DNA of 64,000 nucleotides from positions 1 to 64,000 of the forward strand of contig JBEQLE010000003.1 of assembly GCA_040326155.1 (NCBI GenBank), read 5' to 3'. Below are positions 14,652 through 30,109 of this stretch, one piece after another. The notes beneath the pieces are model-generated. The model had not been told where the DNA came from, made no database searches, and saw only the letters and a program-made list of their open reading frames with translations. The translations under genes were made by a program, and so were the position numbers. This DNA comes from Leptospirales bacterium. GTDB taxonomy: Bacteria; Spirochaetota; Leptospiria; Turneriellales; JAOUFE01. The stretch's first letter is position 1. Each line of letters starts with the position of its first letter.

Positions 14652-15406
14652 GTATTCACCATTCTCAATAAAATATTTTTCATCTCATGTACGGCTTGCC
14701 GCATTCCAACTTTAAGAGCTTTGGAAATAATGGCGTGCCCTATATTCACTTCGCTTAGATTTTCAATATGTAATAAACTATAAATATTATGATAGTTTAA
14801 TCCATGACCTGCATGAAACTCTAGATGTTTTTCCTTGCAAAGTTTTCCGGCATAATGAATTTTTTTCAGTTCGTCTTCGTGCGCTTTGTTATGAAAAAAA
14901 CTTCGAGCAAAATTACCGGTATGCGCTTCTATTCCGCGAACGCCCAGTTTCGCAGCATGTTCGACTGCTGTCTGGGTAGCTTCTGTAAAAAGGAAAACTT
15001 CAATGTCAACTTCTTTAAAAACCGGAAGACTTTCAGACAACAGATCATAGAGTTCCGTTGTATTTAGACCGCCTTCGGTAGTTAATTCTTCTCGTTTCTC
15101 TGGAACAATACAAACACTTTTTGGCTTTAACTTTAAAGCAATATCGATCATCTCTTGCGTAAGCGCCATCTCCATGTTAATTGGAATTTTCAGATGTTTA
15201 TTTATATCGAATAAATCGTCGTCCACGATATGGCGACGGTCTTCCCGCAGGTGCATCGTCAATGAGGCTGCTCCGCCTTCTTGCGCTTCAAGAGCCATGT
15301 CGATTAAAGATGGGTCTTTTTCACCACGGGCATTTCTAAGCGTGGCAATGTGGTCGATATTTACTCCAAGCTTAATTTCTTTTATTTTATGATCAGTTTC
15401 CATCAT
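14648..15406 (-). CDS. pdxJ: Pyridoxine 5'-phosphate synthase
   Basis: LGVNIDHIATLRNARG, HLREDRRHI, TTEGG, AGHGL, NIGH. Confidence 0.97.
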   Translation of the reverse strand: MMETDHKIKEIKLGVNIDHIATLRNARGEKDPSLIDMALEAQEGGAASLTMHLREDRRHIVDDDLFDINKHLKIPINMEMALTQEMIDIALKLKPKSVCIVPEKREELTTEGGLNTTELYDLLSESLPVFKEVDIEVFLFTEATQTAVEHAAKLGVRGIEAHTGNFARSFFHNKAHEDELKKIHYAGKLCKEKHLEFHAGHGLNYHNIYSLLHIENLSEVNIGHAIISKALKVGMRQAVHEMKNILLRMVNT

Positions 15407-16424
15407 TTAATTCCCCATTATTATCATTGTCATCAGGGTCGTTATTCTCTTCAGGTTCTTTTATATATTCCGGTTTTACGGAAAAACGCACGGTAAGGTA
15501 ATTCGGCATTATTTCTATTATGTCAATAGCCTTCTTATTTGTCAGAATCCTAATGATTATATCGATTTCCGATTCTGTATCAAATGGCATTATGGCTCCC
15601 GTTTTGGGAATGAAACGCGTTCCCTCGAGATTTACATAGGCTTGAAAAGAATCAGCGCTCAATTTATTAATAACTTCAGGGTTACCCGTAACGCGAATTT
15701 TAATTTCAAGGCTGGATAAGCGAACTTCTAATGCCGGGTCTAATCCTTCAACCTCGACTTTAATTCCCGAAATAGTTTTTTCACGAGTATTATCCTGAGT
15801 CGATATTGTAATCTGAACTTCAACAGATTGATGATCAATAATTTTACTTTGCCTGGGTTTTATCAGAGCCTTTCGCACAACCAGAGACTTTTGTGCATTT
15901 TCCAGGTTTACCCATTCAGTTTGTACATATTTGATTTCGCGTATTTTAGACTCAGGACCCTCAATTGTAATTGATTTAGGGGTAACCAGTGTTTTACCCT
16001 TCTTGAAACCTTCAGCGATTTCGCCCTGGACCATCACTTTAACGGGAACTATTTTTCTTACTGCTTTCTCTAAATCGATTTTTATCGCCTTCGCCATTGA
16101 GGTAATTTCAATTTTATCCGGTATCTGTTCGGCAACAAATTTTACTTTATACTGTTTGCGTCCGGCTTCGGCGTCGCCAAGATACACGGAGGCTTTCAGG
16201 TTACCAGTGGGGAATTTTAAAGCTTCCTGACGCCCTCTGACACTGAGTTGCAGATAGCGAGGCGGGTCTTTTTTCCAGTAAAGGTTATCTGGTTTTTGCT
16301 CGTAAGTAATGGGAACAGGTATTGTAATGGTATTCATTTTAATATCGCGCACATAATACCATGTGATGATGGCAACAATAATGCTTACGAGTTTTATTTT
16401 CCAGTTTTCCGTAAACCAACTCAT
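15393..16424 (-). CDS. cdaR: YbbR-domain diadenylate cyclase regulator
   Basis: NW.IKLVSI..A N-terminal anchor and repeated YbbR-like beta domains; directly follows cdaA. Confidence 0.85.
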   Translation of the reverse strand: MSWFTENWKIKLVSIIVAIITWYYVRDIKMNTITIPVPITYEQKPDNLYWKKDPPRYLQLSVRGRQEALKFPTGNLKASVYLGDAEAGRKQYKVKFVAEQIPDKIEITSMAKAIKIDLEKAVRKIVPVKVMVQGEIAEGFKKGKTLVTPKSITIEGPESKIREIKYVQTEWVNLENAQKSLVVRKALIKPRQSKIIDHQSVEVQITISTQDNTREKTISGIKVEVEGLDPALEVRLSSLEIKIRVTGNPEVINKLSADSFQAYVNLEGTRFIPKTGAIMPFDTESEIDIIIRILTNKKAIDIIEIMPNYLTVRFSVKPEYIKEPEENNDPDDNDNNGELNDGN

Positions 16425-17224: not shown

Positions 17225-18044
17225 TTTGATTTCCGTTTGCCTCAACGGCAGCTAAAATTCGTTTCATTTGAATTGCCGGGGTAACATCATGAACTCTCAA
17301 TATATCGACGCCTTGTAAAGCTAAATATGTATGGAAAACAAGAGTCGCGTCGCCTCGCTTTTCAACCTCTTGAATACCCAGTAAGTGTTCCATAAGTGAC
17401 TTTCTGGAAACCCCGACAAGAAGTGGAAAACCCTCTTGTTTGAATCGTTCTACATTATTTAATAATATCAAGTTGTGTTCGAGAGTTTTACCAAAACCAA
17501 TGCCAAAGTCCCAGATAATCTTTTTTTCATCTATGCCAAATTTCAAAGCTTTTTCTGTTCGTTGCTTCAAAAAGTCGATGGTTTCTGTGACAATATCTTT
17601 GTATTGAGGTTTTACCTGCATAACCTCTGGAGTTCCTTTGGAGTGCATAAGCACAATACCGGCTTTGTGTTCTGAAACCGCCTGTAAAAGCCCATCTGAT
17701 TCACCGGCTCGAATATCATTAATAAAGGATACCCCCCATTGCAATACTTTTCGCGCCACTTCCGCTTTATGCGTGTCCACAGAAATATTTTTTATTATTT
17801 CAGTACCATTTTTAGTCTGTGTAAGAGTTTCCAACGGGGCGAGTCTTTTCAACTCTTCTGTGACCGTAATCGGCGATGCAAAAGGACGACTGCTTTCGGC
17901 GCCGACATCAAGAATGTTCGCACCTTCGTGTAAATATTTGTTTGCAGTGTTTAAGAATAATTCGGGCTTAACTCTTGAATCGGGTACGAAAGAGTCAGAT
18001 GTAAGGTTGATAACAGCCCAAATTTGTAAATTATTCGTTTTCAA
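17217..18044 (-). CDS. folP: Dihydropteroate synthase
   Basis: N.TSDSF, DVGAESSRP, D.GIGFGK, GVSRKS, LRVHDV; TTG start overlaps the upstream stop. Confidence 0.95.
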   Translation of the reverse strand: MKTNNLQIWAVINLTSDSFVPDSRVKPELFLNTANKYLHEGANILDVGAESSRPFASPITVTEELKRLAPLETLTQTKNGTEIIKNISVDTHKAEVARKVLQWGVSFINDIRAGESDGLLQAVSEHKAGIVLMHSKGTPEVMQVKPQYKDIVTETIDFLKQRTEKALKFGIDEKKIIWDFGIGFGKTLEHNLILLNNVERFKQEGFPLLVGVSRKSLMEHLLGIQEVEKRGDATLVFHTYLALQGVDILRVHDVTPAIQMKRILAAVEANGNQNG

Positions 18045-19066
18045 AAGACAAAATTCAAGTCGACATAGTGTTGTAACCCAATTCTAAGAGGATCGCGATT
18101 AATGGAGTAGGCAAATTTTAAAAAGGGAAGCTCAAGACCAGCCCCGAAAGCCAGGTTACCATCTTGCAGTCCACCCATCAGAAATATATATTTCGCAAAT
18201 AGAAAATGTACGCCAATTCGAGTTGTAGTGGGATTGTTCACATCGCCCATATTTTTGTTCACAGACATCATTATTTTAATGTTCGTGGTAGGGGGTGTAA
18301 TTGCCAACGAAAGATCTAATTCGGTATCCATTTTTTCATAATTGCTTGAACCTACTGATCGTTGGTAAAGTCCAAATAGGTTTTTTGCGACAAATCCAAT
18401 ATTTATAATTGGTATCGGCGCAATTTGAACTCCGAAGGAAAACCCTCCTCCATAAATACTCGCTGTACCAAGATATTCCTGCATAAAGTGGGCCGATAAA
18501 CCCCACCTTAACGTTCCTGACTCTCGGGCATATCCAAGTATAATATCACCAAAACGATATGTTAATTGTCGTGTTGCAACTCCGCTTTCATCGTACCCCT
18601 GAATTCCATCAACAAGACTACCCAAAAATCCGATACCGACCGTCCCTTTAAACAGGGTCAAGCCAATTCCGCTATAGACAATTTTTCGATCCAGCGTCAT
18701 CTGGCCATATGTGGAGAAAAATTGCATTTCGAAAGTTCGCTCACTGGTCTCGTCTTTTTTATTCTCGTCTTTTTCATCCCAGAAGCCTTCGGGCAATGGG
18801 TTGTCATCGGAATTGTCAAACGTATCTTCGCTCTCTTTTTCAAGACTATTTTGACTGCTGTCTTCGCCGTTAATCTGGCTAAGTCCGGCAGGGTTGACTA
18901 AAAGTGAAGAAGGATCGGATACCACCGCTCCATTTGCACCCCCCGAGCCGATATTTTCCGCTCCGTACGTTCCATAGAGAACTCGTCCAGCCGACTGAGC
19001 CTGAATTTCAGCCCATGAAGCCGTTGTGAGAAACAATATAATTAAATAAATTACTTTTTTTTGCAT
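18041..19066 (-). CDS. PorV/PorQ-like (FadL-superfamily) outer-membrane beta-barrel protein
   Basis: Signal peptide; GAENIGSGGA...DPSSLLVNPAGL motif; amphipathic strands ending in terminal Phe. Confidence 0.7.
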   Translation of the reverse strand: MQKKVIYLIILFLTTASWAEIQAQSAGRVLYGTYGAENIGSGGANGAVVSDPSSLLVNPAGLSQINGEDSSQNSLEKESEDTFDNSDDNPLPEGFWDEKDENKKDETSERTFEMQFFSTYGQMTLDRKIVYSGIGLTLFKGTVGIGFLGSLVDGIQGYDESGVATRQLTYRFGDIILGYARESGTLRWGLSAHFMQEYLGTASIYGGGFSFGVQIAPIPIINIGFVAKNLFGLYQRSVGSSNYEKMDTELDLSLAITPPTTNIKIMMSVNKNMGDVNNPTTTRIGVHFLFAKYIFLMGGLQDGNLAFGAGLELPFLKFAYSINRDPLRIGLQHYVDLNFVF

Positions 19067-19070
19067 AAGG

Positions 19071-19442
19071 CTATTGAACCAATACTTTAACGTATTTTAC
19101 CCCAATAGAGGAGTCAGGGTAAGTTTGTGTGAGTTGAATAAAATAGAGTCCGGGACTTACTCGAGTTCCCGAATTATTATGGCCACTCCATTTGATTACA
19201 CTGTTTGTGACGGATGAACCACTGTATGCGAGATTTTCGTTGAAATCGTATACTTTGAAACGGACTGTACCGCTGAATGTTGCCGAATTAGCCGGTTTAA
19301 TGGTCAAAGTGTGCTTGCCTGGGTGAAAAGGGTTGGGGTAGGCAATGACTTTCCCAATAGCTTTCGATTTTCCATAGGAATAATAGCCAAAAGAAATTAA
19401 AAATGCGATCAAGATACTGGAAATTATTTTCCGCTGATTCAT
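19071..19442 (-). CDS. Small secreted protein consisting of a single FlgD-Ig / T9SS type-A CTD-like domain
   Basis: Signal peptide, then AYPNPF, VYDFN, WSGHNNSG..VSPGLYF, VKVLVQ; likely ATG 19442. Confidence 0.7.
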   Translation of the reverse strand: MNQRKIISSILIAFLISFGYYSYGKSKAIGKVIAYPNPFHPGKHTLTIKPANSATFSGTVRFKVYDFNENLAYSGSSVTNSVIKWSGHNNSGTRVSPGLYFIQLTQTYPDSSIGVKYVKVLVQ

Positions 19443-19579
19443 ACAGTATGTTGTGAATTTCACTATAAATAGTCAAGGTTAATATTGGCCATGATTATGA
19501 TTTTCAATTATTTTTGTATGTTAAAATATACATCTGAAGTTTATATGTACATACTTAATAGTAAATATTCACTTTTTAC

Positions 19580-19609
19580 TTGACAACTAGTGTGTTTTCG
19601 TACTACCTT
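19580..19609 (+). promoter_or_regulatory. Putative sigma70 promoter for the 19.6-24.7 kb array
   Basis: TTGACA(19580)-18nt-TACCTT; GGGA SD before ATG 19633. Confidence 0.4.
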
Positions 19610-19632
19610 GGTATTAATATGGGAATAATAGT

Positions 19633-20700
19633 ATGAATATTAGATATTTAATTGCCTTGTTAACTTTTCTTCTGGCTGGCAGTCTGTTTTCACCTGCTTT
19701 TTCACAAGATGCAGAAAAGCCTGATGAAAATCTTGTAAAGAGAAAAGTTCTGGTGTTACCTTTTGTTGATCTTGGCGAAAAAAAGTCAAAAGCCGGGTAC
19801 CTTTCTGTCAGTATTCCTGGAGTAATAATTACCTCACTAAACAAAAGTGGCTCTTTTCAGGTTTTAACCCTTGAAGAAAGCAGCACTTTTGCAAAGAAAG
19901 CCAAGGTTCAGAGTAAAGATTTTTATAATGAAGAGATGGCCATTAAAATTGCAAAAGAGGCCAATGCTGATGTTGTCTTATTGGGTAACTATTTTGTCGT
20001 TGCTGATAAGCGAAGAGGTGACTCCATGCAGATTCAAGCCAAAGTGCTTGATGTTCGCACCGGTAGAAACCGGGTCACTGTAACTAAAAGCAACGAAGTT
20101 TCAGCTTCGGTATTCGTAACTATAAAAGAAATTGCCAGAGAAGTTACCAGGGGTATGGTTAAAGAGCTGCCCCCTTTGACAGAAAGAGAGGTGATGGCTC
20201 AGCGTAATGTCAAGTCCGGTGGTCGTGCCTATCCTTTTGTTCCAAATTTAATGGTAGGCTTAATGGTGAACTACGGCATCAGCGACATGATAATTGGAGC
20301 AGGTTTTTCCAGTATCGGTGTTCGATTTTTTTATGAAAGCAATTCATTTGGCTTTATGACACTGTTTTTAGTGGCTGAGTTGGAAGTATCGTATGGTAGA
20401 GAAACTCTGTTTTCAACAGATGTGTATTATGGTAATTTGCACGCTGGGTTTTCATACCCGCTAAAAATTTCGAAAAAATTCTCTTTTTCTCCTTACATCA
20501 TGGGCGGAATTTTTACCGGAATAGTAGGCCCGACAAGTGAGTATTTTCTTATTCCTTCCGTGAAACCGGGAGTGAATGTTAAATTTGCGTTCAACGAAAA
20601 AAAGGGTATAAACGTACATTTTTCTATGCCATATGTGCTAGATCCAAAAGGTTATTTCTTTTCTCTGGAAGCAGGAGTTGGTTATGCCATCAAATTTTGA
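19633..20700 (+). CDS. Array component A1: TolB-N/CsgG/FlgO-like domain + C-terminal beta-barrel
   Basis: Signal peptide; KVLVLPF, AIKIAKEANADVVLLGNY, IQAKVLDVRTG; ~150-aa amphipathic C-terminus ending GVGYAIKF. Confidence 0.65.
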   Translation: MNIRYLIALLTFLLAGSLFSPAFSQDAEKPDENLVKRKVLVLPFVDLGEKKSKAGYLSVSIPGVIITSLNKSGSFQVLTLEESSTFAKKAKVQSKDFYNEEMAIKIAKEANADVVLLGNYFVVADKRRGDSMQIQAKVLDVRTGRNRVTVTKSNEVSASVFVTIKEIAREVTRGMVKELPPLTEREVMAQRNVKSGGRAYPFVPNLMVGLMVNYGISDMIIGAGFSSIGVRFFYESNSFGFMTLFLVAELEVSYGRETLFSTDVYYGNLHAGFSYPLKISKKFSFSPYIMGGIFTGIVGPTSEYFLIPSVKPGVNVKFAFNEKKGINVHFSMPYVLDPKGYFFSLEAGVGYAIKF

Positions 20701-20734
20701 TATATTAAATAATAGAGAATCTAATGGTAGTCTT

Positions 20735-21658
20735 ATGAACAATAAAACAAAAGAAACAAAATTCTTGAGAAGTCTGGTTATTCTAACGATTACCGGGTTG
20801 ATGTTAACTGCGCTCTCTTGCGTCAGCTATGTCGACACGGTAGTCCCTAAAGTTAAAGTGACTGTTACTCAGTCTGACCAAATGAACATGAACAAAAATG
20901 CGATGATGGGTGGTTACGCCAAAACAATATGGGCTGCAACCACCCGATACGAAACTACAGGTTATGAGGCCGAGAAAGTAAAGCTGGATTCGAACGAAAA
21001 CGGCAACTTGGTAGGGTATCTTCCGGTAAAACCTGGCACAACAAGTGTAACTGTCATTGTCTGGGATGATGATTTAACAAACGCGACGCCATACGGTGGA
21101 AATCGATATGCCCCTTATTCGAGAAACCATAAACTACTCAAAGCAAAAGGCTATTTTACGCCATGTACCGGGGCTTCGGATACTTTGGGTGTATTATTAT
21201 CTAACCGAGTATATGGGGACAACCGCTTGCCTGCTTTTGGCTACGCTACTGCTTTTATTAGTTCTGGTAATTATCGTACATATGGTACCAATAGCCAGGT
21301 GGCTAGTAATGGCGGGCCTTCGGAGGAAGTTTATACAACCGTGACCAGTGTCTCACCTGACAGTTCAATAACGGTCGATTACACGAGTTTCATATTACCC
21401 ACAGCGAACCATTGTGACTGTCCGAAACCTTTAAACGTTGTAAATGCAATGTATGCAGTCAGTTCGCCGAGACAGGTATCCGATTGGGCGTTTTTTTACT
21501 ATTACAGCGACGTTTATCATAATTCATCTGCATCTGGATGGTGGTTCAGTCAAATAATATTTCAAGCGGCTGTCATGTCAACAACACCAATATCCCCGAA
21601 TCTTACAGATACAGCGTCGACAACCGTCGGTGGGGCCTGTATAAGCAGAATAAAGTAA
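20735..21658 (+). CDS. Array component B1: lipoprotein of unknown function
   Basis: Lipobox TALSC; paralog of 22793-23653 (WA..TRYET.GY..EKV.L, PYG, YF.PC.G, VDYT.F, CxC, terminal Cys). Confidence 0.7.
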   Translation: MNNKTKETKFLRSLVILTITGLMLTALSCVSYVDTVVPKVKVTVTQSDQMNMNKNAMMGGYAKTIWAATTRYETTGYEAEKVKLDSNENGNLVGYLPVKPGTTSVTVIVWDDDLTNATPYGGNRYAPYSRNHKLLKAKGYFTPCTGASDTLGVLLSNRVYGDNRLPAFGYATAFISSGNYRTYGTNSQVASNGGPSEEVYTTVTSVSPDSSITVDYTSFILPTANHCDCPKPLNVVNAMYAVSSPRQVSDWAFFYYYSDVYHNSSASGWWFSQIIFQAAVMSTTPISPNLTDTASTTVGGACISRIK

Positions 21659-21667
21659 ACAGAATTT

Positions 21668-22780
21668 ATGGAATATAATATGCAAATAAAACGGAAACAA
21701 TTCTCCTCTCAACCCCATAAACAGTTTCGCTTATTTGCGAAAATGGTAGCATTGTTTTGTACTCTGGGGTTTTTGTTGGTTCCCGCAGAGTCAATACTAG
21801 CACAGGGAAGTGCTAAAAAAGAGCGCCTAAAGCGAAGGGTTCTTATTTTAGATTTTTCCAATGCCAGTAAAGCCAGAGGCGGTGAACATCTCGATTTAAC
21901 TATTCCAGATGCATTAATCGAACACTTACAAAAAACGAATGACTTTATTATCTTAAGGCGTGACCTGGCTGCCAAAAAAGCGGCTAAAGTTATGAAACGA
22001 GATTCCCGGTATGATGTTGAAAAAGCAATTAAAGTTGGCGATTCAGCAAACGCCGATGTTGTTGTAATTGGCAACTACGCAATTTACAATGGTTATATTC
22101 AAATACAGGCAAAAGCAATCGATGTACATTCGGGCGAAGTTCCGGTGGTAATGACAGTTCAAGGAAGAACAGATAGAAATATCTTTGTTACAATACAGAA
22201 GCTGACTCGACAAGTAGCATCAAAAATGTCAAAGGAACTCGGGCCTATTGACGTTACGGAGTTACCTGCGAAACGAGCTATGTACGAACAGAGTCTTGCC
22301 TTAAATGAAAAGAAACAAAACCGAATGTTGCCGTCGGCTTCCATTGGGTTTATTGGCACTTTTGGTCTTACCGATAATGCCCAGATGCTTGAATTTGGTA
22401 AAGGGGTTCGCGTAGCGTTTACGCCAACGCCCTTGTTTAATGGAGTTTTAAATATGTATTTTGAGTGGAATTTATGGTTTTCGGGTGATAAATACCAGAA
22501 TATTCCCTTGATGTTTAATGGAATATTTGCCGGTACTACCTACCCTGTTGTTCTATTTCCGAAGTTTATATTGTCGCCATTTCTTCTAGTGGGAAATTAT
22601 GGCGGTCATGTTTCAAACAAATCAATATTTTCGATATTTGCTACAAAAGTCGGCTTGGATATGAAGTATGCATTCAAAGAAAATTTCGGCGCTAATGTGA
22701 CCGTAAGTTTAGTCAGTTTGCATGACGATGATATACAAATGTTGCTTGAATTCAGTGCGGGAGTTGCCGGAAAGTTCTAA
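21668..22780 (+). CDS. Array component A2: TolB-N/CsgG-like domain + C-terminal beta-barrel
   Basis: RVLILDF, AIKVGDSANADVVVIGNY, IQAKAIDVHSG; ends AGVAGKF. Confidence 0.65.
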   Translation: MEYNMQIKRKQFSSQPHKQFRLFAKMVALFCTLGFLLVPAESILAQGSAKKERLKRRVLILDFSNASKARGGEHLDLTIPDALIEHLQKTNDFIILRRDLAAKKAAKVMKRDSRYDVEKAIKVGDSANADVVVIGNYAIYNGYIQIQAKAIDVHSGEVPVVMTVQGRTDRNIFVTIQKLTRQVASKMSKELGPIDVTELPAKRAMYEQSLALNEKKQNRMLPSASIGFIGTFGLTDNAQMLEFGKGVRVAFTPTPLFNGVLNMYFEWNLWFSGDKYQNIPLMFNGIFAGTTYPVVLFPKFILSPFLLVGNYGGHVSNKSIFSIFATKVGLDMKYAFKENFGANVTVSLVSLHDDDIQMLLEFSAGVAGKF

Positions 22781-22792
22781 GGTGGTGCAATT

Positions 22793-23653
22793 ATGAAATT
22801 ACATAAAAACGAATTAAAAAAACTAACGAAGAAATTATTTTTATTATTACTGCCCCTTTTGGTATTTGCAAATTGCGGAGATTTCTCTTTATTTAACCAA
22901 TTGTCGCAACCAGTGAGTATTGTGGTTTATAATGCAGACCAGAATAATAATAATAAAACAAGCCCGAAAAAGGCTGTAGATCTCTGGGCTGTTTCAACAA
23001 GATATGAAACAGGCGGATATTCTTCAGAAAAAGTGCAATTGACCGACAAGGGTAATGGGGAATGGAGTGGTCTTTTACCGTTGGTGGACCAGGGCGACAC
23101 TTACATTATAATTTATGATGATGTACAGACAAAGCCTATTCCATATGGTAATTCAACTCTGCAAACCAGTACATTTTACTTCAGCGCGTCTAAGCGTTTA
23201 ATAACGGATGACTATTTTTCTCCATGTATGGGACCAGTTAAAAACCCTACAGGCGCGAACACACCTTTGTATAATTTAATGTCAAGCGGACAAATATCGA
23301 TATTTAATAACGCAGATAATGTTGGTTCTGCTACCACAGCAAATGATGAAGTTTATATTGTTCAATACGTAAATTCAGATTCCAGTACAGTTCAAGTTGA
23401 CTATACACAATTTGGCCAGGCCAATGTGAGCTGGTTTTGTAATTGCAACCGTAATGTGCAAATTTATAAAACGAGTATATTCTACTCGTCCCCAAGTACG
23501 ACCGTCACCAACACCTACCCATACTCCACTCCATATGTAATGTTTACAGACAATGATCACTTTACACCAAGTATGGGCACTGGGGGTTACACCTCCACCT
23601 ACACCCCCCCATACACCACTGTGGTAGGTGGAACAACCTGTCCAAGCAGGTAA
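22793..23653 (+). CDS. Array component B2: lipoprotein of unknown function
   Basis: Lipobox VFANC; paralog of B1; Thr/Tyr/Pro-rich C-terminus ending GGTTCPSR. Confidence 0.7.
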   Translation: MKLHKNELKKLTKKLFLLLLPLLVFANCGDFSLFNQLSQPVSIVVYNADQNNNNKTSPKKAVDLWAVSTRYETGGYSSEKVQLTDKGNGEWSGLLPLVDQGDTYIIIYDDVQTKPIPYGNSTLQTSTFYFSASKRLITDDYFSPCMGPVKNPTGANTPLYNLMSSGQISIFNNADNVGSATTANDEVYIVQYVNSDSSTVQVDYTQFGQANVSWFCNCNRNVQIYKTSIFYSSPSTTVTNTYPYSTPYVMFTDNDHFTPSMGTGGYTSTYTPPYTTVVGGTTCPSR

Positions 23654-23684
23654 TGTGTATATTAATGAATATAAAGGCAAGAAA

Positions 23685-24713
23685 ATGAAACGAATTATAA
23701 ACATATTATTAACAATTGGAATTGTCTTACTTGTAGGTGGTTCGTCTTCCATATATGCACAAAAGGGTGTAAAAAAAGTGTTAATACTCGACTTTGCAAA
23801 TGGCGGCGGCGGTGCTAAAGTCGATTTTTTCCATACTACTGGTTCCGACATCTTGAATGAAAAATTATTAACCTCCCGAAAATTTGAAATTATTTCAAAA
23901 GCAAAAATGAAAAAAGCCATTAAAAAATTGAAAATATCTAAAAATCAAATTCATTTAAAAAAGAATGCTATTCGTATTGCTGAATTAGTGGAAGCTGATA
24001 TCGTTATCTCTGGTGTATACAAAACAGCCCAGAACAATTATATGTTTACCATAAATGTTTATCACATGAAAAAAAGTGATGAAAAAAAGGACTTCAAGGA
24101 AGAAACCAAAGGCTCATTAAAGAATTCTGTTTTTGCAGCTATGGATAATCTGTCAAATAAGGTTGTCAAACGGGTCGATCGAACTACCTCTGTCAGTTCT
24201 TCAGGTAAAACGGAAGCACGCAGGTTTTCAGGGTATACCAGGTTTAATCCCGTTATCGACGTATATTTTTCAGGAGCATATATTTCTACTTTTAATATGA
24301 TAGGTTTGGGAACGAAGGTCAATTGGCAACCGCCTCCACTCGGTAAATCTTTTCACACATATTATGAGTTTGAAGCCATCAAGCTTGACAATGGCAATTC
24401 ATACGATTCGACATGGTATGTCTCCATTAGTTATTTTGGTTATATTATTCCAATTCAGATGGGCGGTAACTTCGTGCTTTCTCCCTATATATTGCTCGGT
24501 GAATATTTTATATCGGAAAATTCGTCTGCAACCATGGACGGACCCGTAGTAAAAACGGGAGCCAACGCCAGATTTTACTTTGGCAAGTCTTTTGGAGTTG
24601 CCGTAGACGCTTCCATCGCAGCTCCCATGCTTTCAAATATGGGAAGTGGGTTCTTCAGTAGCTTTATAGGCGTTATAAATGTAAGTCTGGGCGTTACCTA
24701 TCGAATCAAATGA
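23685..24713 (+). CDS. Array component A3: TolB-N/CsgG-like domain + C-terminal beta-barrel
   Basis: Signal peptide from ATG 23685; KVLILDF, AIRIAELVEADIVISGVY; ends SLGVTYRIK. Confidence 0.65.
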   Translation: MKRIINILLTIGIVLLVGGSSSIYAQKGVKKVLILDFANGGGGAKVDFFHTTGSDILNEKLLTSRKFEIISKAKMKKAIKKLKISKNQIHLKKNAIRIAELVEADIVISGVYKTAQNNYMFTINVYHMKKSDEKKDFKEETKGSLKNSVFAAMDNLSNKVVKRVDRTTSVSSSGKTEARRFSGYTRFNPVIDVYFSGAYISTFNMIGLGTKVNWQPPPLGKSFHTYYEFEAIKLDNGNSYDSTWYVSISYFGYIIPIQMGGNFVLSPYILLGEYFISENSSATMDGPVVKTGANARFYFGKSFGVAVDASIAAPMLSNMGSGFFSSFIGVINVSLGVTYRIK

Positions 24714-24721
24714 ATTTACAT

Positions 24722-25288
24722 TTACGAAGAGGCATTCAATAGCAGGTATCCTGCAATAATAGACGCGACTATTAATATTACAGGATTAATGCGGTATCGT
24801 TTATTCAGCCAAAATACACTTCCTGCGATAGCAATATAGAAAATCGACTGAACCCATTCCATTCTAAACCCTTTTTTCAAGAGTCCATATAAGAACACAG
24901 CTAAAATAGAAATAATAGCAATCTGAGCGCCTTTGCGTATATTTTTAACATTCTCTTTATGTGATAGCCGGTTATAGAATTTCGTTATTAATGGTACAAT
25001 AAGCAGGCTAGGCGCAAGCAGCCCCAGTAATATGGCGAGCATCGTGAAAACCCCTCCCAGAGGATACCCCAACATGGCTATTCCGCCGACTCGCGGTCCG
25101 GGTATCATTCTGGATATGCCGAATATTCTGTCGAAGTCTTCCTGCTTAAAAACGATCTCTCTTTCGCACTGTTTTTCCACTTTGCATTCGGTCACCAGCT
25201 TTTTTTGCGTGAGAGCCCAGATTGAATAGATACCGCCAAAACTGTAAAGGCTGATCTGAAAAAACAAAGCAAATAATTTAAGGTTCAC
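24722..25288 (-). CDS. Short-chain CHR (chromate transporter family) subunit
   Basis: FFQISLYSFGG and IPGP motifs; start uncertain (GTG 25288 or ATG 25324). Confidence 0.8.
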   Translation of the reverse strand: MNLKLFALFFQISLYSFGGIYSIWALTQKKLVTECKVEKQCEREIVFKQEDFDRIFGISRMIPGPRVGGIAMLGYPLGGVFTMLAILLGLLAPSLLIVPLITKFYNRLSHKENVKNIRKGAQIAIISILAVFLYGLLKKGFRMEWVQSIFYIAIAGSVFWLNKRYRINPVILIVASIIAGYLLLNASS

Positions 25289-25853
25289 TGTGACCTCGTA
25301 TCTTTCGCACGACTGGAATTGCATAGGTTATAACTGCGCCAGCTAAAATTATTACAAAAAATGAGACACCATCTGAAAACAGTTTTCCCGCTCCCATAAC
25401 AAAAAGAAGGAACAGTAAAATTGCTGTTTCTGTTTTTCCGGTTATTATATCCTCACCCAGTTTTATAGTAGCATTTAATAACAGTCCCGCGATACCGGCT
25501 TGCAGCCCCATAAGAATTCCATGGTTTTCCATAAAGAAGGCAGCCACACCAGGTTGGTATAACATAGCGGCGATGCCTGCTGCAATGAATAACGAGGGCA
25601 ATACAAAACCGGCAACGGAAAGCAACATTCCCGAAATACCTCTTAACTGGTATCCTAAATTTACTACAATATTAACGTGATAGGGTCCGGGCGCAAACGC
25701 GGCCACGGCATAAGCCTCTCGCAATTTTTCAAGGCTCATCCACTTTTTTCGTTCTACAAGGTTCTCAATCAGAACTTCCCCTGTGGCTGCCCCAAAAGAG
25801 TAACTTCCAATTTTGAGAAAGGCGAGAAATATATTTAATTTCGTAATTTCCAA
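25278..25853 (-). CDS. Short-chain CHR (chromate transporter family) subunit
   Basis: FLKIGSYSFG, LVERKKW, APGP, GY.LRG..G, FVLPS. Confidence 0.85.
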   Translation of the reverse strand: MEITKLNIFLAFLKIGSYSFGAATGEVLIENLVERKKWMSLEKLREAYAVAAFAPGPYHVNIVVNLGYQLRGISGMLLSVAGFVLPSLFIAAGIAAMLYQPGVAAFFMENHGILMGLQAGIAGLLLNATIKLGEDIITGKTETAILLFLLFVMGAGKLFSDGVSFFVIILAGAVITYAIPVVRKIRGHSEP

Positions 25854-28057
25854 CGCTCAGGTTCCGTCGGCAATAATTTTTTCAGTCTTTGTATCGACTC
25901 TGATAAGCCGGGATGTTCAATATCATAGAACTCCCTTTTCTCAATTTTATCGCCAAATTCAAAAAACATATACCGTACGCCGGTTTCTTCGTTTTCTTTC
26001 ACGAGCTTTCCATATGGCGTAATTACTGCGCTGTGTAAACCAAAGGGAAGGCCGTTGGTCCGTTTCAGTTTCCAGGCGCTACCAACGATCGTAAACACCG
26101 GCAACATAAAATCTTCTCTTTTGTCTGTAAGAGGTGTAAGGTTAACATGAAATAAACTTTCGCCTTTCAGGCCAAGGGTATCTTCTTTATCCGGTAGCAG
26201 GTTGGTTAAATTTATTAAAGTTGGAAAAATATCAAGTATGGATGCCGGTCGGTCAATACGCGCTGGTGCAATTTTATTTTTCCAATAAAAAAACAGCGGA
26301 ATGTCAATGAGTTCCGCATGCAGGGAGTTCATATGCCCATAAATATTGTGCTCATAGAACGACTCTCCGTGGTCGGCAACAAAAACGATAATTGTATTGT
26401 CCAGCTCGCCTGCCTGTTTCAAATACTCAATGACTCTTCCCAGGTTTGCGTCAGTAATGCGTATTGCATTATCGTAATTGGCGATCAGGCTTTCCAGTTT
26501 TCTCGGGCCCATTCTTGGCGCCGGCTGAGAAGGAGGGGTATGTTGTGTCGGCGGTGAATACTGCTGGTTAACATACTCTGCGCCAAAGTAGGGTAGTAAG
26601 TACGGCAGTTGTTGGTAATAAGGCGTATGTGGTCCCATAATCTGGAGGTGTACAAAAAATGGTTTGTTGGCAGGCTTAATATTTTTATGCCAATCCATAA
26701 ACTTGTTTGTAACATTTTTATCTTTAAGCCAATAATTTACAATTTCTCCTTCGGAGTCTTCAAGTACAAAATAAAAAAAGTAGAGCGTATTTTTATACCA
26801 GGAGTTTAGAACATTCGTGTACCATTTTCCTGAGATCGGTAAGATATTGGGAAACTTTCTTAATTCATCTGCAGCCTGCTTATCAATGAGATTATGAATT
26901 ATTTTCCGATATTGAGCTGTCTCTTCGGCGGTTAATTTAATTCCCGGCTCAATTTTTTCATTTAGAAAATCGTTTAACTGAGATAACGATAAATTAAGAT
27001 AATCAGCGTACTCTTTCAGTGAAATACTATTATTTTTTAAAGATGAAAATGCTTTTCCATGGAATGTATTTTCGAAAAACCGGATAGTTATAAATTTATG
27101 AAAGGCAGTATGCTCTGGCGGCATAGAGTGCATGCGATATTTATACCCTTTTGCATGACCAAAAAATGAGCTGGCATTGCTATTCGCTGAAATCAGCGCA
27201 GTCTCGTAACCTTTTGACGAAAAATATTCCGCCATAAAAGTTCCTTGATATGCAATTGGATAGGCCCCGTTATGAACGGTATCATCTGTCAGTGGTTGAG
27301 AGGTAACCAGAGACGCTGTTGCAGGTTTTGTCCAGGCGGAAGTTGAAAATGCATTTTCGAAAACAACCCCCTTGTCCGCCAGTTTTTTCATATTTGGCGT
27401 TGTGTCTCGTTCGTATCCATAAAATGTCATGTGGTCTTGCCGTGTGGTGTCGGAGACAATCAACAACACATTTGGTATATTCTTCTGGGAGTTTCCGGAA
27501 CTGATCATGTTATTACCGAAATGTTTTGCAAATGAAATCAACAAAAGTAGAATAACAAATATAAAACCTGCTCGTGTAATGAAAGTGGTACCAATGGCAA
27601 AAAAGAGTATACTCAAAAGAATTATAACCGTAAAAAACCGGTCACTGACCAAAAGGCTGGAATTGTCAGCCATTTGCCAGAAAACAATGACAGTTATAAA
27701 TGTAATAACATGGTGAATTCGCTTTTGCTTAAAATGAGCAATTCGTTTCAGAGTTTGAAGAGCCCTGTTTTTTTGTGAACCCTTTGCTGTTTCCCGGTTT
27801 TTCAATATTGCATGTAATTTACCAATTAAGTATTCAAAAAGAAGAAAAAACAAAAACAGTGGAACCAGTAAATATAAAAATCCGATCAAGTAAAACATAT
27901 AAGAGAAAAGAAATGCCGGCGTAAAAAATTCAGCCATGGCAGCTGAATGAAAATGGTAAATAGTTTCAGTGTAAATTAGAATATAAGACATTACGGAGCC
28001 GGCTAAGAAAGCATGAGCCAAATTGGTGAATGTCTTTTTAATCAGTATGTTTTTCAT
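25835..28057 (-). CDS. Membrane-anchored sulfatase-like / alkaline-phosphatase-superfamily hydrolase or transferase
   Basis: 5 N-terminal TMs; PNVLLIVSDTTRQDH, TTPN, WTKPATASL, PHTPY, ADHGE. Confidence 0.85.
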   Translation of the reverse strand: MKNILIKKTFTNLAHAFLAGSVMSYILIYTETIYHFHSAAMAEFFTPAFLFSYMFYLIGFLYLLVPLFLFFLLFEYLIGKLHAILKNRETAKGSQKNRALQTLKRIAHFKQKRIHHVITFITVIVFWQMADNSSLLVSDRFFTVIILLSILFFAIGTTFITRAGFIFVILLLLISFAKHFGNNMISSGNSQKNIPNVLLIVSDTTRQDHMTFYGYERDTTPNMKKLADKGVVFENAFSTSAWTKPATASLVTSQPLTDDTVHNGAYPIAYQGTFMAEYFSSKGYETALISANSNASSFFGHAKGYKYRMHSMPPEHTAFHKFITIRFFENTFHGKAFSSLKNNSISLKEYADYLNLSLSQLNDFLNEKIEPGIKLTAEETAQYRKIIHNLIDKQAADELRKFPNILPISGKWYTNVLNSWYKNTLYFFYFVLEDSEGEIVNYWLKDKNVTNKFMDWHKNIKPANKPFFVHLQIMGPHTPYYQQLPYLLPYFGAEYVNQQYSPPTQHTPPSQPAPRMGPRKLESLIANYDNAIRITDANLGRVIEYLKQAGELDNTIIVFVADHGESFYEHNIYGHMNSLHAELIDIPLFFYWKNKIAPARIDRPASILDIFPTLINLTNLLPDKEDTLGLKGESLFHVNLTPLTDKREDFMLPVFTIVGSAWKLKRTNGLPFGLHSAVITPYGKLVKENEETGVRYMFFEFGDKIEKREFYDIEHPGLSESIQRLKKLLPTEPERWKLRN

Positions 28058-28240
28058 GTCTCAGAATCAACTTTAGAGTTATTTCGCATTGTCAATATCT
28101 GAACGATGAAACTCAGGGTATATATTTATTTTGCTGTACCAAACAAAAGAATAACACCTCATCAAATAATTATTATTGATTTGACAATTGAATTGCCGGA
28201 TGTTTGATGTCATTACTTTTATAAAATCAGGAGTTCTATT

Positions 28241-30109
28241 ATGGATAATCTTACACAGATGTTTAAAGAATCATCAGAAAAATTTGCAGACCGACCGGCG
28301 TTTGCATCCAGAGACAAGGACAAAAAGTACAACACAATTACCTATTCCGAACTTTTTCAGACGGCTGAACAACTTTCAATGGGTTTAATAAACGAAGGGG
28401 TAAAGGCTAAAGAGCATGTCGGTATTTTTGCCGATAACAGACTCGAATGGATACTGGCAGATATGGCGGTTATCCTGGCTGGCGCAGCCGACGTTCCACG
28501 AGGTACCGATGTAAATGAACATGATATTACATATATCGTCCCTCATTCTGATATGAAGGTATTGTTCGTACAAAACACTGCCATATATGAACGAGTAAAA
28601 AAGATTAAGCGAAAGTTGCCGAATCTAAAGAAAATAATCATTATGGATAGCAGCGAAAAGACTCCGAAAGGGGCTTTATCGATGTCTGGTTTAATCGAAA
28701 AAGGTAAAACTTTAATTGAAAAAAACCGAAAAGAGCTAGATAACCGATTTAAAAAAATTAAGCCTTCCGACTTGTGTACGCTTATTTACACTTCAGGAAC
28801 GACAGGTACGCCGAAAGGGGTAATGTTGACGCACGAGAATCTCGTCGCTCAATTGAAAAATGTTCCCATACATTTGTTCCCCGAAGATCGTTTAGTTTCT
28901 ATTTTACCGATCTGGCATATTTTTGAGCGGACAATCGAGATGATATCGTTGAATTCAGGGTCTTGTACATATTACTCTACGATTCGCGATTTAAAAGAAA
29001 ATTTTCAACTTGTAAAACCAACCATGATGGCTTCGGCGCCTCGCGTTTGGGAAAGTCTTTACAACGGTGTTCATACTATGATTGCAAAATCGCCCGGAAT
29101 AAAACAAAAGTTATTCGGCGCTGCTTATTTTCTTTCAAATCATTACAACAGGGCGCTTCGATTTTTATCCGGAAAAGAGTTGCGTATTTCCGGCGGCAAT
29201 TTATTGATCAGAGTTGGTCGTGTAATTCCTGAGGCTCTGGTATTAACTCTTTTGTTTCTACCGGAAAAATTGCTAGATACTATCGTATTGAAAAAAATAC
29301 GTAAAGCTACTGGTGGAGCGTTTCGTGGAACCATTTCAGGTGGCGGCGCTTTACCGATGCATGTCGATAAATTTTTCAATAATATTGGCATACCCGTGTT
29401 GGAAGGGTATGGACTGACGGAAACAAGCCCCGTTTTAGCCGTCCGTACTTTTGATAATCTTGTCGTTGGAACCATAGGTCCGCCGGTTCCCGAAACCGAG
29501 ATAAAATTTCTTGATTTGGAAACAAAAGAGCAGATTTATCCTGGGAAGAAAGGGGTAAAAGGCGAACTCTGGGTTAAAGGGCCACAGGTTATGAAAGGGT
29601 ATTATAAAAATCCGAAAATGACAAAGTCAGTACTGACAGCTGATGGGTGGTTTAACACCGGTGATCTTGGTATGGTTACTCATAATGACTGTATAAAACT
29701 TTACGGTAGAACGAAAGATACCATTGTGCTTATGAGCGGTGAAAATGTAGAGCCGGTTCCTATTGAGAACATGTTGAACCAGTCGCATTATATTGACAAC
29801 TGCATGCTGGTAGGGCAAGATGAGAAAAACCTGGGTGTTTTAATCGTTCCGAGCGCTATAGAGCTTGAAAAATATGGAAAGACGTTAAAGCAAATTGCTA
29901 AAAATGAGCAGGTACAGGAATTGGTCAAATCCGAAATCAAAAGATTGATTAATGCTGATAACGGTTTTAAGCCTTATGAAAGAGTTGTGTCGTTTAAAAT
30001 TCTTGAGAAACCATTTCAAATGGGAGAGGAACTTACGGCAAAACTTTCCATTAAAAGGCATGTCGTTACCAAACAGTACCAGGCGGACATTGCAAAGTTC
30101 TATAAATAA
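28241..30109 (+). CDS. Long-chain fatty acid--CoA ligase
   Basis: YTSGTTGTPKG, EGYGLTETSP, TGDLG, GRTKD; GGAG SD. Confidence 0.93.
   Translation: MDNLTQMFKESSEKFADRPAFASRDKDKKYNTITYSELFQTAEQLSMGLINEGVKAKEHVGIFADNRLEWILADMAVILAGAADVPRGTDVNEHDITYIVPHSDMKVLFVQNTAIYERVKKIKRKLPNLKKIIIMDSSEKTPKGALSMSGLIEKGKTLIEKNRKELDNRFKKIKPSDLCTLIYTSGTTGTPKGVMLTHENLVAQLKNVPIHLFPEDRLVSILPIWHIFERTIEMISLNSGSCTYYSTIRDLKENFQLVKPTMMASAPRVWESLYNGVHTMIAKSPGIKQKLFGAAYFLSNHYNRALRFLSGKELRISGGNLLIRVGRVIPEALVLTLLFLPEKLLDTIVLKKIRKATGGAFRGTISGGGALPMHVDKFFNNIGIPVLEGYGLTETSPVLAVRTFDNLVVGTIGPPVPETEIKFLDLETKEQIYPGKKGVKGELWVKGPQVMKGYYKNPKMTKSVLTADGWFNTGDLGMVTHNDCIKLYGRTKDTIVLMSGENVEPVPIENMLNQSHYIDNCMLVGQDEKNLGVLIVPSAIELEKYGKTLKQIAKNEQVQELVKSEIKRLINADNGFKPYERVVSFKILEKPFQMGEELTAKLSIKRHVVTKQYQADIAKFYK

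Follow-up and report, generated by a model that had tools for sequence, protein, structure and literature searches.

Two alternating gene families at the locus

We have analysed a 64,000-nucleotide stretch of DNA from a Leptospirales bacterium (the window; positions 1 to 64,000 of contig JBEQLE010000003.1, from a genome of 4.26 Mb in 171 contigs), and in particular five genes that lie on its forward (+) strand at positions 19633-24713 in the order A1-B1-A2-B2-A3, the letters standing for two protein families. A1 (19633-20700, +, 355 amino acids) is the upstream member of an A1-to-B1 pair and is predicted to encode an exported outer membrane protein whose periplasmic domain is TolB-N/LpoB-like and whose C-terminal part forms a barrel. 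B1 (20735-21658, +) encodes a lipoprotein (LTALSC) of 307 amino acids counted from its ATG, the open reading frame (ORF) itself opening at a TTG at 20678. A2 (21668-22780, +, 370 amino acids) repeats the architecture of A1 and is the upstream member of the A2-to-B2 pair; its second ATG, at 21680, is where the database copy begins and is likely the true start. B2 (22793-23653, +, 286 amino acids) encodes a lipoprotein (VFANC) paralogous to B1 and was returned as P0017 in the protein search, and A3 (23685-24713, +) is a diverged member of the A family, 342 amino acids long from its ATG in an ORF that opens at a GTG at 23628, which has no partner downstream. A first-pass annotation of this DNA, made from the letters alone, had described five co-oriented and closely spaced genes in this alternating order, and this layout stands as it was given, with gaps of 34, 9, 12 and 31 bp for the chosen starts.

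The genes on both flanks are on the minus strand, and the five genes therefore constitute a self-contained block. Ahead of A1 lies a divergent intergenic region of 169 bp (19464-19632), which presumably holds the promoter of the block, its placement being inferred; a scan with consensus promoters returned no convincing plus-strand promoter ahead of A1, and the corresponding terminator scan gave no clear terminator after A3.

Within each family the similarity is evident from pairwise BLASTP comparisons. A1 and A2 align with E 1.9e-35 (31% identity over 364 positions), A2 and A3 with E 2.1e-13, A1 and A3 with E 1.9e-6, and B1 and B2 with E 1.6e-19 (31% identity over 211), and nothing below E 0.5 was obtained in comparisons of A with B. 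The paralogy of the A genes and that of the B genes are thus far above chance, and the two families are mutually unrelated. The motifs that the first-pass annotation had quoted for the two families all correspond to invariant alignment columns: V39, L40, L42, F44, A103, I104, A112, D113, V115, G118 and Y120 in the A alignment, and in that of B1 and B2 W66, A67, T70-T74, G76, Y77, E80-V82, L84, P119-G121, Y140, F141, P143, C144 and G146, followed by E198-Y200, V214-T217, F219, C227, C229, G299, G300 and C302.

In a tree of 42 A-family rows, from which L035, L040, L047, the member on contig C80 and P0004 were left out as truncated or aberrant, A1 and A2 are sisters, together with the A2 orthologue P0002 (Shimodaira-Hasegawa-like approximate likelihood ratio test, SH-aLRT, 92). 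This sisterhood is what duplication of an A-B unit would give, so that the tandem duplication of such a unit, as first proposed, holds for the two complete pairs; it does not extend to A3, which is partnerless, does not group with A1 and A2 and remains unplaced on a long branch of the tree.

Predicted architecture of the A proteins

The signal peptides of A1-A3, as read from the sequence, end without a cysteine. The sole cysteine of A2 sits in the hydrophobic core and is missing in P0002, an orthologue of 77% identity. At the other end the proteins finish in GVGYAIKF (A1), GVAGKF (A2) and GVTYRIK (A3). Searches with Pfam and NCBIfam gave weak matches to LpoB, CsgG, FlgO and TolB_N over the first ~150 residues, and the only one above its cut-off is that of A2 to CsgG (PF03783; 23.5 bits, cut-off 20.8), over profile positions 8-97 of 210; with A1 at E 0.26 and A3 giving no match, none of the three matches the whole domain with its membrane hairpins. 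The remaining matches are all below their cut-offs, namely LpoB (PF13036) with 18.7 bits for A1 and 17.1 for A3 against 22.3, TIGR02722 with 20.9 and 20.8 bits (A1, A3) against 110.55, TolB TIGR02800 with 15.3 bits against 343, and FlgO (PF17680) with 15.1 bits for A1 and 12.5 for A2 against 22.6, A3 having no FlgO match at E up to 1. The Pfam barrel families (OMP_b-brl PF13505, OmpW, OmpA transmembrane) had no match in A1-A3.

The structural comparison was made with an AlphaFold2 model of A2, built on 12 sequences, with a mean predicted local distance difference test score (pLDDT) of 70.9. The model comprises an alpha/beta domain at residues 56-190 (pLDDT ~85-93), a poorly predicted linker and long strands at 224-368. 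Foldseek matched the N-terminal domain to TolB, LpoB, PelC and GNA1162 at E 3e-7 to 1e-4, with 44 matches at E≤1e-3, among them FlgT (3w1e). In agreement, VIA-align, with which A2 was compared to 48,161 chains and its two parts scored separately, gave for residues 53-194 an FlgT/LPHT-ring chain (8z5n) at Z 13.4, TolB at 12.4, PelC at 11.5, CsgG at 11.4 and LpoB at 10.2, and for residues 220-370 NspA at Z 11.8 (root-mean-square deviation 2.9, 122 aligned), OprF-N at 11.7, OmpA at 11.6 and OmpW at 11.4. The C-terminal part is accordingly modelled as a closed eight-stranded barrel with an aromatic or hydrophobic C-terminus, at a pLDDT of 45-84. A search of PDB chains with the A sequence profile returned one meaningless row (E 0.51).

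Taken together, the signal peptides without lipobox, the barrel-type C-termini and the fold matches indicate that the A proteins are, as far as the model can be trusted, Sec-exported outer membrane proteins with a periplasmic domain of the TolB-N/LpoB/PelC/FlgT type and a C-terminal eight-stranded barrel resembling OmpA and NspA. Both proposals of the first-pass annotation for this family are in line with these matches: the CsgG/TolB-N-like N-terminal domain, which Foldseek and VIA-align both place in the TolB-N/CsgG/LpoB fold, and the barrel, for which the matches of A2 220-370 to eight-stranded barrels (Z 11.4-11.8) speak at the level of a predicted model.

The B domain

Unlike those of the A proteins, the signal peptides of B1 and B2, which have a positively charged n-region and a hydrophobic core, end in a cysteine (LTALSC and VFANC); this by eye and by our own rule identifies them as lipoproteins, and most relatives of the B domain align a cysteine at the same lipobox place. 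The two proteins have in common a core of ~200 residues (about 39-240 in B1), for which no Pfam or NCBIfam family was found; their description as lipoproteins of an unnamed family is thereby upheld. HMMER, run exhaustively against 1.84 billion representatives, yielded 20 proteins at E≤0.001, 13 of them at E≤1e-10. Most of these relatives are longer lipoproteins that carry the B domain at the C-terminus, behind an N-terminal part that varies (Big_7, DUF4215 repeats, or unrecognisable). Across a 19-row alignment, which left out P0022 (SBBP repeats, looking spurious), P0025, P0027 and P0017 (the latter being B2), the invariant residues in B1 numbering are T70, E73, E80, L84, G94, D111, D112, F141, P143, C144, E198, C227, C229, T291, D292 and C302; the domain is marked by its four invariant cysteines, by a number of acidic residues and by a C-terminus of the conserved form ..TD..GGxCxxR.

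The AlphaFold2 model of B1 (mean pLDDT 73.2) shows a beta-sandwich at residues 39-215 followed by an unpredicted tail, and the tethers of the B proteins are short, with about 8-12 residues from the lipid-bearing cysteine to the first strand. Foldseek returned nothing from the PDB at E≤0.001 for this model, VIA-align gave generic beta-sandwiches only, with Z up to 6.3 (CBM20, transthyretin-like, Bacteroides adhesins), and a search of PDB chains with the B sequence profile gave nothing at E up to 1. As the sandwich matches are generic, we claim no fold family for B, which is best described, on the predicted model, as a lipoprotein with an orphan four-cysteine beta-sandwich domain that is very rare: none was found in the other 400 genomes of the phylum that were searched.

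A search for further B loci with an 8-row alignment gave two genome and two metagenome loci, one of them a duplicate, the distinct ones being L015 (identical to L017), L016 and L018; L015 and L016 are short contigs whose neighbourhood is seen in part. The source genome itself has a third B-domain gene, on contig C80, which encodes an 883-residue lipoprotein. In this protein (C80:27132-29783) and in that of L018 (9161-11137; P0024) a low-complexity insert rich in Tyr, Thr, Trp and Pro lies between the sandwich core and the terminal ..FTDTN..C.R strand, so that the last cysteine would have to reach back over a variable loop of 100-200 residues.

Spread of the A family and pairing with lipoprotein genes

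Searched with a profile built from A and its relatives, the source genome yields 12 A-family ORFs, and at E≤1e-5 the family is matched in 157 of 401 sampled genomes of the phylum, mostly with several members per genome. In the large same-class family f5 the share is just 3 of 75 genomes. Among the homologues the highest CsgG score is 61.7 bits, every such match being confined to the first ~100 profile positions, and the FlgO cut-off (22.6 bits) is passed by L026 and L040 (28.2 each), L041 (25.8), L022 and L036 (23.9 each), which suggests that the wider A family overlaps FlgO at the level of domains. Over the C-terminus the homologues match OMP_b-brl and OmpW below threshold (at best 24.7 bits against a cut-off of 28.7), one A clade carries a PEGA domain between the N-terminal domain and the C-terminal part, and the ESM Atlas holds only 'hypothetical protein' clusters for A, labelled LpoB, CsgG, TolB_N or OMP_b-brl. 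There is also a variant, at C109:14016-14969 (L007:1486-2436) and in P0004, that has, in place of the barrel, a hydrophobic helical region with a PGWGH motif; on contig C109 it is followed after 9 bp by a gene for a 403-residue protein with a signal peptide and cysteine (IATPGC).

We have investigated which genes follow the A genes, scoring lipoproteins by a crude lipobox rule of our own rather than by SpLip or SignalP. By this rule 191 of 3398 ORFs of the source genome (5.6%) are positive, as compared with five of its 12 A genes that precede a positive co-oriented gene (A1 with B1, A2 with B2, and those on contigs C3, C114 and C85; binomial p 3e-4); two more (C109, C126) precede genes for proteins with a signal peptide and cysteine that the rule misses. 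Outside this genome the loci were taken as returned by the search, blind to their neighbours. The best match per genome gave 29 loci, 27 of them evaluable and 18 rule-positive, one of the positives (L027) being an RsmI-type methylase and hence false, and one of the misses (L030) resembling by eye the partner found in L028, L039 and L045; the next 20 best A matches gave 19 evaluable loci and eight positives. In an automated tally over these 49 loci, the rule was positive for 26 of 39 co-oriented downstream genes, for 7 of 32 co-oriented upstream genes and for 9 of 96 other ORFs of at least 100 amino acids, and the Fisher p values for the downstream position are 4e-11 against the other ORFs and 3e-4 against the upstream genes, both of which overstate the case because related genomes are not independent.

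Of the 16 coded families sampled, 11 contribute positive loci, and the median gap between A and its partner is 12 bp (30 pairs). The partners are of unrelated families: some combine Big_5 or FecR with a propeller, others are of the Kelch, PQQ_2, RCC1 or BNR-like kind, and several are small proteins without a family; they have no common C-terminal signal. The partner family tracks the A clade on the tree, one such family keeping to its A clade in both of the coded families f15 and f53. An A gene followed by a lipoprotein gene is thus a recurrent module of spirochaetes, and by our crude measure the pairing is solid. The earlier suggestion that each barrel gene has its own lipoprotein gene is in this respect sustained from the side of A; from the side of B it is not, since none of the four other B-domain loci (L015, L016, L018, C80; the first two seen in part) has an A gene beside it, contrary to the adjacency that had been expected of B homologues. 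As lipoproteins recur behind A and A does not recur beside B, the constant member of the pair is A.

Several further features of the partners were noted. Those of L020, L025, L031, L033, L044 and C109 are beta-propellers (DUF5122, Kelch, PQQ_2, RCC1), and such a lipoprotein, paired with the TolB-N-like domain of A, is loosely reminiscent of a TolB divided between two genes. In L028, L029, L030, L032, L035, L039 and L045 (f15, f35, f53) a gene for a FecR-like lipoprotein, recognised by eye from its start ..VTFVSGxV..NG, also precedes the A gene, which gives the order FecR-like lipoprotein, A, second lipoprotein; in L033 it is the downstream partner itself that carries FecR (Pfam). We have also compared the first 12 residues past the lipid-bearing cysteine in 30 partners with those of 219 other rule-positive ORFs, L027 and sequences with fewer than 12 residues past the cysteine having been dropped. 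The partner tethers are richer in Asp and Glu (18.6 vs 12.4%, p 0.002) and in Phe, Trp and Tyr (11.1 vs 6.9%, p 0.007), and lower in Gly; MFED, MWDD, DFSLF and DWED are examples.

A complex prediction for A2 (52-370) with B2 (28-286) scored 0.38 (runs at 0.02, 0.38 and 0.51), as compared with 0.02 for the best of three controls, which lends weak support to an interaction. In the calibration 116 of 157 solved complexes passed, as did 2 of 215 mismatched pairs; the passes at 0.60 or below comprise 18 of the 157 solved complexes and both of the passing mismatches, and a pass in that range is more often wrong than right unless the pair is likely beforehand.

A candidate docking partner for lipoproteins

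Starting from the observed gene order, paralogy, lipoprotein signals and statistical pairing, together with the predicted folds, we tentatively favour, at somewhat less than an even chance, a reading in which A is a generic outer membrane docking partner of the cognate lipoprotein encoded behind it, and in which the array consists of two tandemly duplicated A-to-B units and a third, diverged A without a partner. The barrel would anchor A in the outer membrane, and the periplasmic domain would bind the newly delivered lipoprotein, either via its folded domain or via the acidic and aromatic N-terminal tether, so that A would hold or position the lipoprotein at this membrane; such binding is what we infer, and docking could also precede a transfer to the surface by other machinery. 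A would then be the constant member of a widespread pair and B one of many variable lipoprotein partners. Of the two, B would be the subunit that carries the function, most likely a binding module formed by a beta-sandwich with disulfide bonds and invariant acidic residues, its own conserved genomic companion being a rare sulfatase-family membrane enzyme described below. The fold of the A N-terminal domain has precedents for docking, in FlgT and FlgO with the lipoprotein FlgP, as set out in the available text of 10.1101/358820, and in PelC with PelB and TolB with Pal, as far as the titles of the structure entries tell.

A number of observations weigh against this reading. On the structural side, the barrel part of the A2 model has a pLDDT of about 45-84, several of the A matches in the second batch of loci lack a barrel-type C-terminus, and prediction gave no confident A-B interface, the runs for A2 and B2 sharing no contacts (agreement at least 0%) with a partner pLDDT of at least 52. 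On the genomic side, the absence of an A gene from all four other B loci means that B does not need an adjacent A. The A genes on contigs C91, C122 and C80 are followed by non-lipoprotein genes, and A3 and the A gene on C33 face convergent neighbours. About a third of the co-oriented downstream genes in the tally are not lipoprotein genes at all (radical SAM, ECF sigma, RsmI, SUKH, AhpC), the lipobox rule was falsely positive at least once and overlooked two or three lipoproteins, and the tether pattern is exploratory and post hoc, with families counted repeatedly. Moreover, the upstream genes (7/32) and the other nearby ORFs (9/96) themselves exceed the background of 5.6%, so that some of the signal reflects a general tendency of envelope genes to cluster.

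This last point leads to the explanation that A and the lipoproteins are co-regulated neighbours and nothing else, the A proteins being general envelope proteins, such as OmpA/Pal- or LpoB-like tethers, which make no specific contact with a lipoprotein, and the array a plain local duplication. Such an explanation would account for the enrichment at non-partner positions, for the third of downstream genes that encode cytoplasmic proteins, for A3, C33 and others standing alone and for a weak complex prediction whose runs disagree. It does not sit well with the strong direction of the effect, 26 of 39 downstream against 7 of 32 upstream (p 3e-4), nor with the median gap of 12 bp, with the retention of the same partner family by the same A clade across f15 and f53, or with the duplication of A1/A2 and B1/B2 as units, and we consider it quite unlikely.

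Surface display and comparison with known systems

A more ambitious role for A would be dedicated surface display, in which its barrel, alone or in a ring formed via the PelC/CsgG-like domain, moves or threads the lipoprotein to the surface, in the manner of Slam (type XI secretion) or of RcsF through OmpA/OmpC. Slam proteins combine a TPR domain with a 14-stranded DUF560 barrel. The operonic order of A and lipoprotein would fit such a system, whereas the barrel of A matches eight-stranded barrels only, and Pfam returned neither DUF560 nor TPR for A1-A3 at E up to 1. The fold of the N-terminal domain is common to the ring-formers PelC, CsgG and FlgT, and yet the CsgG match of A2 spans just positions 8-97 of the 210 in the profile; these positions precede the membrane hairpins of CsgG. 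Likewise, the partner tethers are enriched in acidic residues, and an acidic tether resembles the acidic lipoprotein export signal of Bacteroidota, but the tethers of the B proteins are short (about 8-12 residues). Many partners resemble adhesins or propeller-type surface proteins, while B-domain lipoproteins occur without an adjacent A. Slam genes, too, adjoin those of their substrates, according to the available text of PMC5449769. On the other hand, the export of surface lipoproteins has already been assigned to LptD, in Borrelia (10.1101/2022.12.21.521298) and in Bacteroidota (10.64898/2026.10.03.756453), as stated in the accessible portions of these two sources.

Surface display by A thus appears unlikely. 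Of the three functions that the first-pass annotation had offered for the barrel, to anchor, chaperone or translocate the lipoprotein, translocation is the least likely, as an eight-stranded barrel is too narrow for a folded beta-sandwich and no Slam or SusC/D family was detected at E up to 1. A Slam-like translocon is, judging from the modelled barrel, less likely than docking, because of the eight strands, the lack of Slam families and the assignment to LptD elsewhere.

The A proteins were also compared with described systems. The best structural match of the predicted N-terminal domain is a chain of the LPHT ring (8z5n, Z 13.4); FlgT and FlgO, of the same fold family, likewise have a lipoprotein partner, FlgP, with which they build the H-ring of Vibrio under the outer membrane; the part of 10.1101/358820 available to us terms FlgO a lipoprotein. 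The differences are that these proteins serve the flagellar H-ring, have one fixed partner and, for FlgO, come with no described barrel, whereas the A family has 12 paralogues per genome, an eight-stranded barrel of its own and many unrelated partners. PelC and CsgG are alike in the N-terminal fold (Z 11.5 and 11.4) and differ in that both are lipoproteins, which A is not, and in that the CsgG match stops at ~100 of 210 and the barrel of A forms a small domain of its own; neither polysaccharide nor curli genes were found near the array. LpoB and TolB-N have the same fold as the A N-terminal domain, and A has neither the lipid anchor nor a beta-propeller, its C-terminal part being the barrel. 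Regulation of a penicillin-binding protein in the manner of LpoB was considered and thought unlikely, there being 12 paralogues per genome and no gene for such a protein beside the array.

As to the barrel, residues 220-370 of A2 superpose on OmpA, NspA, OmpW and OprF-N, with similar aromatic or hydrophobic termini, and A differs from OmpA in having its periplasmic domain at the N-terminus, with a fold unlike that of the OmpA C-terminal domain. Slam1 and Slam2 of Neisseria, with the substrates TbpB, LbpB, fHbp and HpuA, also are outer membrane barrels with a periplasmic domain encoded beside a lipoprotein, as described in the available portions of PMC5449769 and PMC9090332; A differs in its predicted TolB-N-like domain and eight-stranded barrel. 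Neither A nor B corresponds to SusC/SusD, a 22-stranded TonB-dependent barrel with a SusD-type lid: Pfam gave no TonB-dependent receptor or SusD family for either, and the A proteins have just 342-370 residues. The nearest description in the literature is an in-silico study of Brachyspira pilosicoli (10.1101/2025.01.03.631275), the accessible text of which reports for BP951000_RS01125 ('CsgG') an AlphaFold 3 model with an eight-stranded barrel and a periplasmic domain, a SignalP assignment as lipoprotein and no function; by its description this architecture is that of A, the lipoprotein call is a difference, and that text mentions no partner gene.

Pairs of a barrel and a lipoprotein are already known as a kind, from Slam, SusCD, LptDE and PelBC. 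The literature searched, which included few subscription journals, held no description of the A architecture paired with a downstream lipoprotein, of such pairing with varied lipoproteins across a phylum or of the B domain.

Neighbours of the B-domain genes

Apart from the A genes of the array, a second type of gene lies near B. At 25835-28057 on the minus strand of the window, two genes (1.1 kb) past A3 and not part of the operon, is a gene for a 740-residue membrane protein of the sulfatase family (PF00884; Pfam 172 bits), and it is only this type of gene that recurs beside B-domain genes in other contexts. In L018 (9161-13800) a sulfatase-family gene follows the B-domain gene after 159 bp and its product is 47% identical to that of the window; on contig C80 a paralogue with 43% identity (24680-26884) lies 248 bp ahead of the B-domain gene at 27132-29783. 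A sulfatase-family gene is thus found near B in all three readable contexts, and the three proteins are mutually 43-47% identical. The source genome has exactly two full-length paralogues of this subfamily, and none was found at E≤1e-30 in the other 400 genomes of the phylum, with two candidates scored per genome, nor at E≤1e-20 in four genomes of the same order. The B domain and the sulfatase-family enzyme share a rare distribution and a neighbourhood, in three contexts only.

It could be, then, that B mainly works with this enzyme, as the substrate, product-binding module or accessory of a rare Thr-type transferase or hydrolase of the alkaline phosphatase superfamily (LtaS/EptA-like), and that the A genes were added later in this lineage. 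The close gene pairs of L018 and C80, the enzyme gene 1.1 kb past A3, the two paralogues in one genome, the absence of both B and the enzyme subfamily from the other 400 genomes searched and the invariant Glu, Asp and Thr residues and four invariant cysteines of B are all what one would expect in such a case. The contexts are only three, however, and two of them come from one genome. Furthermore, in L018 a ChrA pair (14837-15954) lies beside the sulfatase-family gene as it does in the window, which makes the two regions syntenic, so that common descent, and not function, may explain the linkage. The window has the enzyme gene on the strand opposite to that of the array, with two transporter genes in between; on the one side of L015 that is readable no such gene appears, and the subfamily search scored two candidates per genome. 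We regard this explanation, which is compatible with docking by A, as quite improbable.

Flanking genes

Upstream of the array the minus strand carries a weak PorV-like barrel gene and a small FlgD_ig-like gene, followed by folP, cdaA, ybbR and pdxJ. The gene at 18041-19066 (-) encodes a 341-residue exported protein ending in ..LNFVF, with a sub-threshold PorV/PorQ match over just 39 residues, and that at 19071-19463 (-) a 130-residue protein with matches to FlgD_ig and to the C-terminal domain (CTD) of type IX secretion cargo; both are divergent from A1. Type IX secretion was dropped as an explanation of these two genes, the PorV_fam score being 20.7 bits against a cut-off of 90. A genome-wide search for PorV gave at best 30 bits, below the cut-off, and a search for TIGR04183 (CTD cargo) gave no match in the genome and likewise none in 14 control genomes, which makes it uninformative. 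Downstream, a convergent half of ChrA has its stop 8 bp from A3. The two ChrA halves (24722-25324 and 25278-25853, both -), a split chromate-transporter pair, are followed by the sulfatase-family membrane protein gene.

Implications for spirochaete lipoproteins

Spirochaetes are unusually rich in lipoproteins, the sorting of which to the outer membrane, their retention there and their exposure are only partly understood, LptD being implicated in Borrelia and Bacteroidota in the available parts of the sources given above. We can imagine, as a possibility that we find doubtful, that the A family is a phylum-wide, undescribed class of cognate outer membrane partners, in which the TolB-N/PelC-type domain would read the acidic and aromatic tether and decide the fate of the lipoprotein, retained under the outer membrane or passed to the surface; the array would then be a recent local expansion serving an orphan B domain that works with a sulfatase-family enzyme. 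If the pairing were mere clustering of genes, the array would be an ordinary local duplication of envelope genes. The analysis also puts two unnamed families on the map, the A architecture and the rare four-cysteine B domain, the latter linked to a rare sulfatase-family enzyme. If the docking reading is true, a multi-copy barrel family present in ~40% of the sampled spirochaete genomes would provide a testable handle on cognate complexes of lipoproteins and outer membrane proteins.

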